From positions 75,672 to 139,671 of IMG/VR virus record IMGVR_UViG_3300012983_000033: 64,000 nucleotides of DNA. One strand, given 5' to 3'. Position numbers and translations under genes: made by a program. Origin of the DNA: a virus (Duplodnaviria; Caudoviricetes). Under the pieces are notes generated by a model. It made no database searches and was not told the origin of the DNA. It was given only the letters and a program-made list of their open reading frames with translations. Of the stretch, positions 8,462-25,814 are shown one piece after another (position 1 is the first letter of the stretch; the number at the start of each line of letters is the position of its first letter).

Positions 8462-9185
8462 ATTTTATTTCAGTACAGTCGTCATAAATTTCAATAATAT
8501 CATCATATATAAACCGCACATTTTCATTATATAAAGTTAAATTTAAATCGTGATGATAGTGACCAGTAATCCACATTTTAAAGTCTATATTATAAAATAA
8601 ATCTTCAAGAAGTTCACCTGAAGGAGTGGCTTCAAAAGTATGGAATACCTGTTTTACTACGGTATTTGGAAGGGAATGAGAGATGATATAGTCGATACTA
8701 TTGCCGACAGTAGCAAGATTGCGATTTGCATTTTCAATATCAGAAGGAAGAATTGTTTCCTGCGGCCACCAGCTCACATTCTCTGTACGCCATTCTTTGT
8801 CGTGGCTATCTGCTCCGCCCATACAAAGGATTTTTAAGTCATCAAATTTCAAAATTTCACCACGAAGAATATGGTATACAGAATCAGAAATTTGATGTGC
8901 TTTTGCACCACAAAATTCTGTGATAGGATATGCATTAAGGCGAAGATGATTTTCGTGATTCCCGTCAATAAAAACTGTTGTCCACGGCGCAACTTCATCA
9001 AGCCATTTTAAATACCATTTTTCTTCACCGTCAGGCTCATTTGACCAAATAAAGCCAAAGTCACCTGCAATAATCAGTATATCGGACTTGTTAAACGCAT
9101 TTTTAAACTTTCTGCGAAAGTCTACGAGTTTATCAAAGTCAATAGTACCGTGAGTATCGCCAGTAACTAATATCTTACTCATCAT
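8442..9185 (-). CDS. calcineurin-like metallophosphoesterase
   Basis: GDTHG, GDFG, GNHE, GHYH motifs. Confidence 0.85.
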   Translation of the reverse strand: MMSKILVTGDTHGTIDFDKLVDFRRKFKNAFNKSDILIIAGDFGFIWSNEPDGEEKWYLKWLDEVAPWTTVFIDGNHENHLRLNAYPITEFCGAKAHQISDSVYHILRGEILKFDDLKILCMGGADSHDKEWRTENVSWWPQETILPSDIENANRNLATVGNSIDYIISHSLPNTVVKQVFHTFEATPSGELLEDLFYNIDFKMWITGHYHHDLNLTLYNENVRFIYDDIIEIYDDCTEIKFVGCRG

Positions 9186-10344
9186 CTTCCACCTCCATTT
9201 CTTTTTTTATTCGTTCTTTTATTCTTAACATAATAGTTTTTTCTGTTAAATTATTCATATAATCATTTATATTATTTTCTCTATGGTCATAAGCCCATAT
9301 TGAAAAATTAAAACCGTCTTTTGTTAAGCCTGCTGAATTAAGAGCATATACATAATTTTTTCTTGGCATCCAGCAAAGATGACGTACTTCACAGAATTGC
9401 TCCCAAAAGTGGTCTTTGATATCTTCGTATGCCGCGATGATAAGTTCCATTTTTGCTCTATGCATTGGTGCATAAGCAAGGAAGTCATCGACTTTATCCT
9501 CACGAATAAGACGGACAGCTGTTCTCAAACCAAGTTTACCATTATTTGTAGCGTGCGCGGCGATGAGATATTCTGGTGATTTGATTTTAATGCGGTTATG
9601 ATTCGCATCGACAACAACCATACCCTCTTCGTCTTTTGTCATTTGTTCTGCGACATCAATACAATCTTCAAGAGAAGATAAATAAAATCTCTTTGGTTGC
9701 TCAACTCCAAATTCCCTCCATACAGGATCGAACTCATAATACTCTCCATAGAGAATATTATCTCTTTGACCAAGATAATAGAGAGTTGTGTGGTCATAAT
9801 GGATTGTTACTTGGCTTTCTGGTGAAACCAATTCAAACATATAGGTGTAATGTTCGTCAAGTTCACGACAGAAAGAAAGCCAATTACAACCAAGAGCACG
9901 CTCAACTAAATTACCAAAAGTCAATCCTTCTATTGAGTTTGACACAGGCGCCTCGAAAGCGTCAATAGAGTTATTAGTTGATAAATGCCAACCTTCGTAG
10001 TTGTGCCAGAACTTGATAAGCGAACCGTCAATTTTTTCATTAACAAATGCACTACACCAATCAATTTCTGCGGCGTTTGGATCTCCATAGTTAAAGAACT
10101 TATCGAAAGGATAACAAACAATACTCCACTGACCGCTTAATCCTTTTTGCACAATTATGCCACGACACGCCTGACATAAAGGTAAAGACATATCAGATTC
10201 AAGCTGATTATACTTGAAAAGGTAATAGTTACCTTTCTGACGAACTTCAATATTATAAGGCGGTTCCTGTATTAACTTAACCCATTCGTCATTAGGATGC
10301 TCATTGGCAAAGTCAATAAAAGCATCAATTATTCTTTTCTTCAT
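9175..10344 (-). CDS. T4 Rnl1-like RNA ligase
   Basis: CRGII, PFDKFFN, EKIDGS (motif I), FELVSP, EGMVV, IKIKS. Confidence 0.9.
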   Translation of the reverse strand: MKKRIIDAFIDFANEHPNDEWVKLIQEPPYNIEVRQKGNYYLFKYNQLESDMSLPLCQACRGIIVQKGLSGQWSIVCYPFDKFFNYGDPNAAEIDWCSAFVNEKIDGSLIKFWHNYEGWHLSTNNSIDAFEAPVSNSIEGLTFGNLVERALGCNWLSFCRELDEHYTYMFELVSPESQVTIHYDHTTLYYLGQRDNILYGEYYEFDPVWREFGVEQPKRFYLSSLEDCIDVAEQMTKDEEGMVVVDANHNRIKIKSPEYLIAAHATNNGKLGLRTAVRLIREDKVDDFLAYAPMHRAKMELIIAAYEDIKDHFWEQFCEVRHLCWMPRKNYVYALNSAGLTKDGFNFSIWAYDHRENNINDYMNNLTEKTIMLRIKERIKKEMEVEDDE

Positions 10345-10402
10345 AGTTTATTCTCCTTTCTCAATTTCTTTTATTATATCAAAATTTTAAGATAAAATCA
10401 AA

Positions 10403-11333
10403 TTAATGCGCCGCCATATCGCATTTATGAATAATATCAAGTTCCGCGCCCAGTCCTGTTTTCTTATAAAACTTCTCAAGATTTTCGGGTGAACGGAAGA
10501 AATGCTCCATATGGAACTGAATAAGATTTGCAACGATAAGACGCTTATAATTTCTTACTTCATTAAAGTAAATTTCAGGATGTGTCATAAGATAGATATA
10601 AGCAGAATAATTCTGATGACCATAGTAGTGGGCTTCTTTTGTGGGTTCGCCTTTTGAGTTTGTGAATACTTTTGTAAAAGGCTTTCCAATATCGTGATAG
10701 CGAATTGCTTCAGTAAGTAATTCAATATCAACATCATGTCCACAACTATAATTTACTCCAAGATGAAGCAAAGCCATATCTATATGATCGCTCACTGTTT
10801 CAGTTGAATGATTATGATTATCATTTTTTATTTTATCACAAAGTTCAATATATTTTTCAGTTTTTTCTTCAAGACAAGTATTATCCCAAAGAATAAGGAT
10901 ATTATCCCAACCTTCGTATTCAAAAGGACACTGGAAACTACGAAGTTGTTTTTCAATTACTTCATTAGGGACTTTACGCTCTCTATTTTTCATTCTTTCT
11001 TTTATAACTTGCGGCGGTGTGATAATTACTATGCATTCTTTTTCGCAGTTAATATGCTGAATCTGTTTTAAGAAGCCTTCACGACGACGAGCTGATAAGT
11101 TGGTTGCATCGAACACAACCCATTCACCATCTAATAAGCCTTTTTTTATGCGGCGGTGTGCTTCCTGAAAAACTTTCTGCGGGTCTTTCTGCTCATTTTC
11201 ATCGCCCCAAAGTTCACCACGAATAGCATCAGTAGACACAATAATAGCACCCATTTGTGCTAAATCTTTTGCTAAAGTTGATTTACCACAACCAGCGCTA
11301 AGATACACCAACCATCATAGTTAGTGTGCTCAT
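10403..11333 (-). CDS. polynucleotide kinase (AAA_33) fused to an HD domain; N-terminus is out of frame (see findings)
   Basis: GCGKST, STDAIR, DATN, HDIGK; true start is ambiguous. Confidence 0.8.
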
Positions 11334-21700: not shown

Positions 21701-21709
21701 ATATAATTT

Positions 21710-21780
21710 TATACTACTGGGAATTTAACCACAGCTCTCCTCCTTTAAAGGGAGGCGAATTTTCGCTATTCGATAGTATA
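21710..21780 (-). tRNA. degenerate tRNA-like cloverleaf with UUA (ochre) anticodon, no encoded CCA
   Basis: TATACTA/TAGTATA acceptor, GAAT/ATTC D stem, CCTCC-CTTTAAA-GGAGG, T loop TTAAATT. Confidence 0.5.
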
Positions 21781-21789
21781 AAAGCATAT

Positions 21790-22700
21790 GGTAAGTAAAA
21801 ACGAAAACCTGAGAATACAGTTTTCAAATTGCTACGCCTTAATGACCTTATGTGTTAGTCACTTTTCCACTTCCTTTTGGGAAGTAGCGCTCATGCCTGC
21901 GTTTTTACATCCCCAGCACAAGGGACGAGGTCCGCTAATCTACCTTTAACGAGTACTTACTCGATTATCACTCCACTATCAACCTTGCGGGCTGTTCGCG
22001 GTTGCTACACCACTATAGATTCGTTTCAATCAAATACAAGATGCTTGTGACACCTTATATCCCGTATTGCTTACCACTACGGGCTTAAGACACTTTTCGT
22101 TACTCGCAATAACAGATTTTTACTTTTAACATACCTTCCATTTAATAGTATTGCTCTACCTACTGAGCTACCCGCGTATGTATGGGAGATAGGTGCTTAC
22201 TATCTCCGCGTGAATAATAATTGGCACGCGGGGTGGGACTCGAACCCACGCTAAGTTAATTTGACAGAAGACAGACTGTTATCGTAGTTTCCATACCTTT
22301 TGAGCACAGAAATGCTACCCGCCTTCAACACTTTCCTTGGCTTCGTACTCGTGTTTCCTAAAACCACCGTAGCAGTAATAGATGGAAGCCGCCCTTGATT
22401 GCTAATCTCGAACTTATCTTCCTGCGGTTTACCATACCTTATTCTATCCTTTTTGCGTTGAAGCCAGTCCCTTGCGAGAACGGTCGTTCTCAGACATTTG
22501 TCCATTGATCGACATTTTCACTTCATCAAGAATAAGTTAAGACATAGGGGATATATCCGTAGTGGTCTTTTCAACCAACTACTGGTCCCGGCGCGCAGTG
22601 CTTGGGGTACCACTTTCGTGGCGGAAGTTTGTCAGTATCTTCCTTTCGTTCCCTTACGGGAAGTTATCAGCCAAGCCTGAATATTTCAATAAATTACCGA
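21790..22700 (-). ncRNA. GOLLD-like giant ornate RNA (about 900 nt) with an internal permuted tRNA module
   Basis: No credible CDS, rich in GNRA-capped hairpins, own sigmaA-like promoter; 3' end TACTTCCCAAAAGGAAGTGGA...AAAACTGTATTCTCAGGTTTT resembles GOLLD (from memory, not searched). Confidence 0.7.
22152..22250 (-). ncRNA. circularly permuted tRNA module without anticodon (T arm + CCA first, 44-nt spacer, then 5' acceptor + D arm)
   Basis: GTGGG-TTCGAGT-CCCAC-CCCGCGT-G-CCA (22249-22222) precedes ACGCGGG-TA-GCTC-AGTAGGTA-GAGC (22177-22153); acceptor strands are perfectly complementary. Confidence 0.8.
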
Positions 22701-22775
22701 AGTAATTTATGTTATATTTTTTTTCAGATTATGTATATATTATACATAAAATTTTTGAAAAAATCAAATTTTTAA

Positions 22776-23758: not shown

Positions 23759-24880
23759 TCAGACCGCATAATGAATATTTTTAGAACTCTTACGACGGAA
23801 GAGAAGAAAATCAAGTTCTTTATTCTCTTTAAGTGCAGCATATTCTGCTTTTTCCTGTTCAGTGTCATCTTCATAAGAGTTATATGAATCATTCCATTTA
23901 AAGTTAACCGATTTTGCAAGAATGATGTTGCCGCCGCGCTCATAATCATAACGAATATCAAGAGCACTAAACTCAACAGAAAAACGCTTATCTTCAAGAT
24001 AGAACCAGCGAGTAATCTGTTCATCACTGAACATATCAAGTGAAACTTCCTGACTTAATTTTGTTCCGTCTTTGAAACAAGCAATAAGATTATAAGTTTC
24101 ATTATCAATATTTAAGATATTCAAATCACCGATAGCATCTTCAAAGGGCGTTCCACACTGTAATTCAAATGAAATCGCACGAAGACAGTCATAGTTAAGA
24201 GGAACTTTATTTGCAAAAGCAACTACCTTTTCAATTTCACAAAAATACTGATCATCAATCTTATCACGAAGATATTCCTCAATTTCTACTTTTGTGGGAT
24301 AATCAAAACGAAAATGATAATGGAAACGACCAGGGCGGTTCACGATATAATCATTCAAGTGATTCAACTTGTTACAAGTAACAATGAATAACTTTTTACC
24401 TTGTGAGAGACCATCAAACAAAGTAAGCATACTTGCCTGAGGATCGTTCATTGAGTCACCGTCTTTGGCATAAAAAGTCTTATCAAATTCATCAAAAAGA
24501 ACGACAACTTCCTGCTGAATTGAGGTAAGGAAATCCGCAATTCCGGGAATAAAAGCATTTACAATAAGTACGGGATAACCCTCATTAGCCATTTTTGCTG
24601 AAAGCATTTTGGCAAATAATGACTTACCAATACCTTTTTCGCCACTAAGAATAACACCAAGACTTCTTTCAAAACATTTAAAAGCACCAACAACTTTCTC
24701 AAGTTTTTCAGGTGCAACACCATACACTTTTTCAGTAATTTCAATATCATCAAACTTCTGAAGATAGAAGCCAGTCATTTTACTAAAATTAACAGTATAA
24801 ATCTGTGCGGGCAACTGATCAAAAGTCTTGACACCATCATCATAGATTTGGTACATATGACCTGTATTAACTATCTGCAT
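23759..24880 (-). CDS. AAA+ ATPase
   Basis: GEKGIGKS, VLFDEFDK, NRPGRF (second region of homology). Confidence 0.85.
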   Translation of the reverse strand: MQIVNTGHMYQIYDDGVKTFDQLPAQIYTVNFSKMTGFYLQKFDDIEITEKVYGVAPEKLEKVVGAFKCFERSLGVILSGEKGIGKSLFAKMLSAKMANEGYPVLIVNAFIPGIADFLTSIQQEVVVLFDEFDKTFYAKDGDSMNDPQASMLTLFDGLSQGKKLFIVTCNKLNHLNDYIVNRPGRFHYHFRFDYPTKVEIEEYLRDKIDDQYFCEIEKVVAFANKVPLNYDCLRAISFELQCGTPFEDAIGDLNILNIDNETYNLIACFKDGTKLSQEVSLDMFSDEQITRWFYLEDKRFSVEFSALDIRYDYERGGNIILAKSVNFKWNDSYNSYEDDTEQEKAEYAALKENKELDFLLFRRKSSKNIHYAV

Positions 24881-25737: not shown

Positions 25738-25814
25738 TGGTGGCGGAGGTAGGACTTGAACCTACGACCTTCGGGTTATTGAGCCCGACGAGCTACCAAC
25801 TGCTCTACTCCGCG
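25738..25814 (-). tRNA. initiator tRNA-fMet body with an 8-nt anticodon loop (CUCAAUAA)
   Basis: C1/C72 mismatch, GGG/CCC anticodon stem, one extra A in the loop. Confidence 0.8.

Follow-up and report, generated by a model that had tools for sequence, protein, structure and literature searches.

The 64,000-nucleotide (nt) stretch considered here, called the window throughout, covers positions 75,672 to 139,671 of IMG/VR record IMGVR_UViG_3300012983_000033, a complete virus genome of 139,671 bp (139.7 kb) with terminal repeats which, judged by the sequencing runs that hold the stretch, is that of an animal-gut phage. The minus strand of the window encodes, from 22700 to 21790, a GOLLD RNA, and the linker of this RNA is a complete transfer RNA (tRNA)-shaped domain, written in circularly permuted order with the break at the variable-loop position. 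The GOLLD RNA is located inside the tRNA island of the phage, where 30 tRNA genes and a ROOL RNA surround it, as is often the case for this phage- or prophage-encoded family.

The first-pass annotation of this DNA, made from the letters alone, had proposed a GOLLD RNA at this place, and the Rfam covariance model RF02032 confirmed it: the full model (positions 1-416) aligned to 21806-22327 with 149.1 bits (E 2e-41) and missed the gathering score of 150 bits by 0.9 bit, the score being lowered by a 147-nt insert in the linker. All helices of the model are aligned, and the 3' domain comes after a variable linker and a 5' domain that is less well conserved, which is the layout of GOLLD RNAs; the length of ~900 nt agrees with the ~800 nt or more of the family. 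The 5' domain is conserved with those of four related loci (L099, L100, L491 and L240). The tRNA module is found in the low-information linker of the model, and this alignment, together with the relatives described below, supports its earlier placement in the GOLLD variable linker. The positions of all parts of the RNA and of its neighbours are given in Table 1.

Table 1. Positions of the GOLLD RNA, of its permuted tRNA module and of neighbouring features in the window, listed in the direction of transcription of the minus strand
Feature	Positions	Strand	Evidence and remarks
tRNA with 8-nt anticodon loop (caat)	25738..25814	-	ARAGORN
RNA-repair-type and accompanying genes (three regions)	23759..24880; 15434..16997; 9175..11311	-	
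Promoter-like TTGATT-17-TATAAT	22739..22767	-	Consensus scan, 10/12 matches; upstream of GOLLD; weak, as shuffles of the region yield equally many
Whole GOLLD RNA, ~900 nt	21790..22700	-	RF02032 at 21806-22327; conserved 5' domain; RNA contigs 22693-22223 and 22160-21787
GOLLD 5' domain, subfamily-specific	22328..22700	-	Motifs common with L099/L100; outside the Rfam model, which covers the 3' region only
Open reading frame of 84 amino acids, called mechanically	22251..22505	-	Most likely no gene
GOLLD helix before the linker	22266..22327	-	Rfam model positions 1-62; cmscan alignment; minimum free energy and centroid fold of 22098-22330
J5, single-stranded entry GUCAAAUUAACUUAGC	22250..22265	-	Parsed alignment; last 5 nt are the variable-loop position
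T arm GUGGG-UUCGAGU-CCCAC	22233..22249	-	5 base pairs (bp) in every cell; double change at 2 positions
Acceptor 3' strand CCCGCGU	22226..22232	-	7/7 pairs; compensatory change at all 7 positions in 7 sequences
G73 (22225) and encoded CCA (22224-22222)	22222..22225	-	Predicted 3' terminus of the mature 5' piece: 22222
44-nt spacer	22178..22221	-	8-bp hairpin (GGAGAUAG 22207-22200, loop UAAGCAC, CUAUCUCC 22192-22185) and leader CAUACAU 22184-22178
Acceptor 5' strand ACGCGGG	22171..22177	-	Predicted ribonuclease P (RNase P) cut between 22178 and 22177
U8 A9 (22170-22169) and D arm GCUC-AGUAGGUA-GAGC (22168-22153)	22153..22170	-	G18 G19 present; stem invariant in all 7 sequences
A26 and anticodon-arm equivalent	22131..22152	-	Stem AUACU 22151-22147 / GGUAU 22135-22131; 11-nt loop AUUAAAUGGAA
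GOLLD 3' domain, conserved core	21806..22130	-	RF02032 alignment, model positions about 115-416
tRNA-like gene	21709..21780	-	46.6 bits in a sensitive Rfam run only, missed by ARAGORN; UUA (ochre-reading) anticodon, loop CUUUAAA; CCA not encoded
ROOL RNA	20625..21259	-	RF03087, 318.6 bits, E 1.7e-72
tRNA with CTA (amber-reading) anticodon	19683..19772	-	ARAGORN label 'Pyl'

On the minus strand the 3' half of the tRNA comes before its 5' half, and the positions first assigned to the T arm, to G73-CCA, to the 44-nt spacer and to the 5' half were all confirmed. Two likenesses to tRNAs of the same phage were also found again, a 23-nt identity (GGTAGCTCAGTAGGTAGAGCAAT) between the D-arm segment and the D-arm region of tRNA-Phe, and an acceptor end in common with tRNA-Arg(ACG) (ACGC.../...GCGTGCCA). 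By contrast, the module had been described as having no anticodon arm, and this is not correct: a stem of 5 bp follows directly after A26 and is kept in all seven sequences compared below, so that the phrase 'lacking an anticodon' fails as anatomy and holds only in that the loop of the window is non-canonical. In its genomic order the module gave only fragments of 13-17 bits with the tRNA model (RF00005) and no ARAGORN call, and with its 11-nt loop it is no standard-order cloverleaf with a 7-nt anticodon loop. As the body of the GOLLD RNA is attached at the variable-loop position, the acceptor end, the elbow of D and T arms and the anticodon-like loop all stay free. The 84-amino-acid reading frame of Table 1 lies entirely within the GOLLD 5' domain.

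The flanks of the module had been thought to form an irregular helix, CTTCTGT with ATGGAAG, and this proposal is wrong because the 5' strand of that helix belongs to a conserved GOLLD helix, in which CUUC pairs with an upstream GAAG (Rfam positions 1-9 with 54-62; in the window GUCUUC with GAAGGC), while its 3' strand lies in the anticodon-like loop. The supposed helix forms only in a fragment that leaves out the upstream GOLLD strand and is gone in a longer fold; when 22098-22330 is folded, the GOLLD helix, T arm, acceptor stem, spacer hairpin, D arm and anticodon-like hairpin form together. From the base sequence we tentatively suggest another closing helix, of 4-5 bp, in which UUAAC of J5 (22259-22255) may pair with GUUAA of J3 (22130-22126); counterparts could be read by eye in L240 (AUAAC/GUUAU) and L100 (CUCA/UGAG).

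Using pattern scans of other contigs, from which false positives were filtered out, we found the same permuted module in the GOLLD RNAs of six other loci, L100, L240, L359, L335, L491 and L099 (L101 has the same module as L100, and L104 the same sequence as L099). One of these, L491, is a 2.6-kb contig binned with an Acutalibacteraceae metagenome-assembled genome. The RF02032 scores of the relatives are 173, 156.2, 152.8, 148.8, 134.2 and 97.8 bits, the lowest belonging to an RNA cut by the contig end. The seven sequences, all from separate contigs, were parsed in register. In the acceptor stem all 49 of 49 cells are paired and both sides have changed at 7/7 positions, giving five different stems; the T stem has 35/35 paired cells with both-side change at 2 of its 5 positions, the anticodon-like stem 35/35 with both-side change at 4/5, and the D stem is paired in all cells and invariant. 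The first-pass annotation had pointed to permuted halves and acceptor covariation in further GOLLD loci as a check on its proposal, and both are thus present.

RNAalifold, given the six CCA-bearing modules, predicted the four helices unaided, with 12/21 pairs compensatory, and in a formal count 98.4% of cells were paired, as against 77.3% after shuffling (0/500 shuffles reached the observed value) and 32-51% with slid partners. Unrelated T-arm/D-arm neighbours form only 1-3 of the 7 acceptor pairs and all seven related modules form 7/7, so the module is beyond chance. When put back into standard order in silico, all seven modules are called as tRNAs by ARAGORN. On this comparative ground the permuted tRNA fold is shown to be under selection. 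The anticodon-like loops of the relatives vary from 7 to 11 nt and have a UGRAAA-like 3' part in common. A search for a kissing partner of these loops gave 6-7-nt complements at one homologous site of the 5' domain in L491, L335 and L240; the candidate was rejected, as the window and L099 have their complement at a different site and matches that short are expected by chance.

The ends of the acceptor strands have also been kept. N73-CCA follows exactly after the 3' acceptor strand in 6/7 modules, whose spacers range from 16 to 44 nt with little identity, and all six CCA-bearing modules have AU at positions -2/-1, just ahead of the 5' acceptor strand. The same two signals mark the true tRNA genes of the phage, with AT at -2/-1 in 27/30 and CCA encoded in 29/30, and the tRNA islands of L100, L240, L359 and L335 have the same leader and CCA pattern. 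The leaders of the phage tRNAs (17146-26870, minus strand) are strikingly uniform, with ATAT or TTAT directly before +1. The alignment of the modules thus shows that both tRNA gene-end signals were kept while the acceptor stem was rewritten several times, and given these rewritten stems and varied spacers, plain inheritance of an exact NCCA and AU leader without selection is unlikely.

Twenty sequencing runs from 12 studies, all of animal gut or faeces, hold part of the stretch, and six of them are metatranscriptomes. We compared assembled RNA contigs from four metatranscriptome runs, after a filter that drops some, possibly tRNA-like, records. In three of them, X15, X17 and X18, the contigs stop on both sides of the spacer, without loose ends there: 5' and 3' pieces span 22630-22226 (depth 8.9) and 22160-21787 (depth 7.6) in X15, 22693-22223 (depth 73.8) and 22160-21719 (depth 39) in X17, and 22687-22234 (depth 45.7) and about 22153-21839 (depth 28.5) in X18. 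No contig bridging 22161-22222 was found in the three metatranscriptome studies, where contigs alone were compared and some records had been filtered out. The RNA contigs, 95-99% identical to the window, confirm the order of the elements: on one side the 5' domain runs into the T arm, in one contig as far as the 3' acceptor strand, and on the other the D loop runs into the 3' domain. The 5'-piece contigs end nearly at the predicted CCA end, 22222, as the first-pass annotation had expected, and the contig ends near the spacer are at most a weak hint at cutting by RNase P and 3' trimming. The X15 and X17 contigs, and X18 too once its loose end was re-read, come from a close strain with one extra base at 22142/22143, in the anticodon-like loop, the length of which therefore varies even between near-identical strains.

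Around the GOLLD RNA, the X17 contig continues through the tRNA-like gene that lies directly past the GOLLD 3' end. The ROOL RNA follows on the same strand, ~530 nt downstream of GOLLD, and ROOL RNAs also stand beside the related GOLLDs of L099 (327.7 bits) and L240 (296.4 bits). No intrinsic terminator of the GOLLD RNA was found in a scan of the region. Near the tRNA island there are two genes of RNA-repair type, one for an Rnl1-like RNA ligase (PF09511), the other for a protein with kinase and HD parts (AAA_33 plus HD); further genes there encode PhoH, a ClpP-like protease and an AAA ATPase embedded among the tRNAs.

A blastn search with a 931-nt stretch gave no match among 50,697 phage records, no exact 25-mer of the module was present in viral contigs, and nhmmer with the GOLLD sequence gave no match in 80 loci of phages that share the neighbouring AAA ATPase. 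When a 5'-domain motif was sought in metagenomes, the matches were for the most part due to chance and lay in a protein gene, the exception being L104, and a scan of a genome collection returned mostly tandem identical tRNA genes (these also pair 7/7 and were removed by eye), with L491 as its sole true member. The GOLLDs of L082-L097, from phages that share the AAA ATPase, have AT-rich linkers and no module, and their few tRNAs (7 in L082, 2 in L094) have no encoded CCA; the presence of the module may go together with tRNA sets that encode CCA, on small numbers. In L098 (4040-4170, minus strand) the linker of a GOLLD-like RNA carries a tRNA body in normal order (D arm, CUU anticodon arm, T arm) without an acceptor stem, GOLLD strands occupying the acceptor position, which is the opposite graft to that of the window.

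A published parallel is YrlA, a bacterial Y RNA. In the YrlA of Mycobacterium smegmatis, too, the T arm comes first, then the acceptor stem and then the D arm; it is the sole Y RNA with a 7-bp acceptor stem, and RNase P cleaves it, both in vivo and in vitro, into a two-piece RNA whose 5' half ends in CCA (PMC4201824). We lean towards the view that the GOLLD RNA is likewise split, by RNase P and 3' trimming, into two pieces at its permuted tRNA. The predicted cut site is inferred from the 7-bp stem, U-1, N73-CCA and the YrlA precedent: host RNase P would cut 5' of A22177, and the 44-nt spacer would become a 3' trailer that is trimmed back to the CCA at 22222. This would leave a 5' piece of ~475 nt, ending in T arm, acceptor strand and CCA, and a 3' piece of ~390 nt, beginning with acceptor strand, D arm and anticodon-like arm. 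Because GOLLD hangs from the variable-loop position, processing of the tRNA ends would split the GOLLD RNA and would not release a tRNA, and what would keep the pieces joined is the 7-bp acceptor helix, along with the tRNA elbow and cage contacts. A two-piece product had been predicted in the first-pass annotation, and the stem, N73-CCA and AU leader kept in six modules, with the YrlA precedent, sustain that prediction indirectly, the contigs adding their weak hint.

Such splitting would have a place in the known architecture. By cryo-electron microscopy the GOLLD env-38 RNA, the one GOLLD for which such an assembly is known, is a 14-mer nanocage in which the linkers lie inside, the 5' domains form a cap, the 3' domains form a belt, and cap and belt are connected by a single A-minor bridge; the published models draw 'covalently linked tRNAs' within the cage (10.1101/2024.12.08.627333). 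With the linkers inside a 14-mer, 14 tRNA bodies would sit there, and cutting would turn the covalent hinge between 5' cap and 3' belt into a non-covalent clamp. As cap and belt are joined by one A-minor bridge, one may speculate that a cut hinge could matter for opening of the cage. A further step, that two-piece cages present 14 tethered tRNA bodies with functional free CCA ends (open to extension or repair by the CCA-adding enzyme, to charging, or to binding of EF-Tu, ribosome or tRNA-modifying enzymes), with a cut hinge on which the 5' cap could open and shut, and so act in phages with large tRNA islands as a tRNA-presenting or factor-trapping cage, seems to us unlikely.

A number of observations weigh against cutting. 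In L099/L104 a 6-nt loop closes the acceptor stem, with neither CCA nor leader, which means that not all GOLLDs of the subfamily can depend on cutting. The spacer hairpin of the window recurs in L100 (where two pairs differ on both sides), L240 and L491 and is absent from L359/L335, and one would hardly expect a hairpin to be kept in a piece with no fate other than removal. In the window the spacer largely repeats the 5' acceptor strand: its CACGCGG (22212-22206) can pair at every base with CCGCGUG (22231-22225), and this alternative to the acceptor stem, seen in the window only and not in L100, L240 or L491, could mask the 3' acceptor strand and G73. Rfam GOLLD is found in 16/79 records of the phages that share the AAA ATPase, and all 16 linkers are AT-rich without the module. 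As to the RNA, contigs cannot show true RNA ends, those of the 3' piece fail to reach the predicted 5' end, 22177, by 11-24 nt, and the missing cover over 22161-22222, coming from contigs with records filtered out, was not counted as evidence by itself.

It is conceivable, at a clearly lower probability than cutting, that the module is an uncut tRNA mimic, covalently closed, whose spacer hairpin caps the acceptor stem and which serves as a stable fold or as a place where tRNA-binding proteins dock, as in the YrlA of S. Typhimurium, CCA and leader being merely inherited from an ancestral tRNA. The closed 6-nt loop of L099/L104 and the spacer hairpin, kept in four lineages with pairs changed on both sides, fit this view, and so does the report that S. 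Typhimurium YrlA, which has a shorter, closed stem, and D. radiodurans Yrn1 are not cleaved (PMC4201824). Closed T-arm/acceptor/D-arm modules are moreover common in viral contigs, 49 of 123 pattern matches (L110-L229) having 6-7 acceptor pairs. What it explains poorly is the presence of NCCA and AU leader at exact positions in six modules with fully rewritten stems and varied spacers; that no contig bridges the spacer in three studies also speaks against it, weakly. By analogy, GOLLD modules with CCA and those with a closed stem resemble the cut and uncut states of YrlA. Many of the closed viral modules of YrlA type carry a GGTTACTTC-like upstream motif, and GOLLD is present in only 2/42 records with closed T/acceptor/D modules; the module of L229 stands outside the linker, at a distance of ~340 nt upstream from the Rfam GOLLD match and beside a transfer-messenger RNA (tmRNA) gene.

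That the cut RNA is charged, its CCA end being aminoacylated and bound by EF-Tu or the ribosome, or used as a decoy for tRNA-targeting enzymes, we regard as quite improbable. A 12-bp acceptor/T minihelix with N73-CCA is present, Chen et al. raised a possible aminoacylation of the cut M. smegmatis YrlA (PMC4201824), and a ribosome pull-down of GOLLD has been mentioned (10.1101/2024.12.08.627333). However, the window and L100 have G73 with A1-U72 where L491, L240, L359 and L335 have C73 with G1-C72, and the 'anticodons' that ARAGORN reads from the re-permuted modules are inconsistent (taa, agg, tgga, tga, gat) in loops of differing length, so that no common aminoacylation identity is conserved among the relatives. 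There is neither a G3-U70 pair nor a G-1, and the enlarged loop would be poor bait for anticodon nucleases; the charging, EF-Tu binding and decoy functions suggested at first have thus found no support.

Could the module be a canonical YrlA Y RNA that recruits Ro60/Rsr to GOLLD? The YrlA model RF02553 does align to the module along its whole length (35 bits and E 2e-6 on 201 nt), and the elements follow each other as in the model, so that the layout is the known one of Y RNAs and not unprecedented. Yet with 35 bits the gathering score, 69, is missed by far, the columns of the Ro-binding outer stem are mismatched or gapped in the cmscan alignment, the position of the Ro-binding stem is held here by the anticodon-like hairpin and its flank by the GOLLD helix, and the complete phage genome has no TROVE gene (PF05731), the control genomes giving their match, so we hold this to be very improbable. 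We give almost no credence to a non-functional relic of two decayed tandem tRNA genes, or to an assembly rearrangement: tandem tRNAs can mimic a T-arm-then-D-arm order (PMC4201824), as our own scans also met, but seven separate contigs have this order, and three of the stems show compensatory change, the tRNA model finds no 5' half upstream and no 3' half downstream (13-17 bits only), and independent RNA contigs join 5' domain to T arm and D loop to 3' domain. A tmRNA was rejected, as ARAGORN finds none, beta_tmRNA reaches 10.4 bits where its cut-off asks for 84, and pair 3-70 is G-C.

To our knowledge, GOLLD is among the largest bacterial and phage non-coding RNAs to have been without a function since 2009, and we know of no partner or activity for it. 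A permuted tRNA with signals for RNase P and CCA would give GOLLD its first testable biochemical handle, would tie it to tRNA biology by mechanism and not by mere neighbourhood, and makes a prediction about the content of the cage interior. If cut, GOLLD would be the second natural large RNA made two-piece by means of a back-to-front tRNA, after the YrlA of M. smegmatis; if uncut, the module would still be a new placement of a tRNA mimic of Y RNA type, without Ro60.

Among known systems the closest in kind are other GOLLD RNAs. Weinberg et al. (2009) are said to have described GOLLD RNAs with an ordinary tRNA or a pseudo-tRNA in the variable linker. The window shares with the ordinary tRNA-bearing GOLLD the family, the linker position and the phage tRNA-island setting, and differs in that its tRNA is circularly permuted, with the variable-loop position as the point to which the GOLLD body is attached. 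Ordinary tRNAs and pseudo-tRNAs are thus already in print as GOLLD linkers (10.1101/2024.12.08.627333; PMC6582537), and no description of a permuted tRNA in this place was met in the papers that could be searched. Like YrlA (RF02553), the module is embedded in a larger RNA and runs from T arm through acceptor stem to D arm; unlike YrlA, it comes without a Ro60 gene and without a Ro-binding stem, has an anticodon-like arm and is part of a 900-nt RNA of the cage-forming kind, and its CCA is encoded, not added.

Permuted tRNA-like genes are known from other settings too. In the two-piece tmRNAs of alphaproteobacteria and cyanobacteria, removal of a spacer leaves two base-paired pieces with a CCA end. 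The layout of 3' half, spacer and 5' half is that of the module, which in contrast has no tag reading frame and no G3-U70 pair and has a full D arm. In Cyanidioschyzon merolae, Soma et al. (2007) reportedly found permuted tRNA genes that give free normal tRNAs through a circular intermediate, by splicing endonuclease and ligase, with a bulge-helix-bulge motif as the cutting site; there, as in the window, the 3' half stands upstream of the 5' half, and tRNA end-processing makes the acceptor ends, as it would in the window, but the break point in the window bears domains of 470 nt and 390 nt, the loop is non-canonical and the setting bacterial. Finally, in MALAT1/mascRNA and in mitochondrial 'tRNA punctuation', a tRNA-shaped element in a long RNA is a signal for RNase P and a tRNA-like piece is released, whereas in the window the tRNA body would remain as a clamp between the two products.

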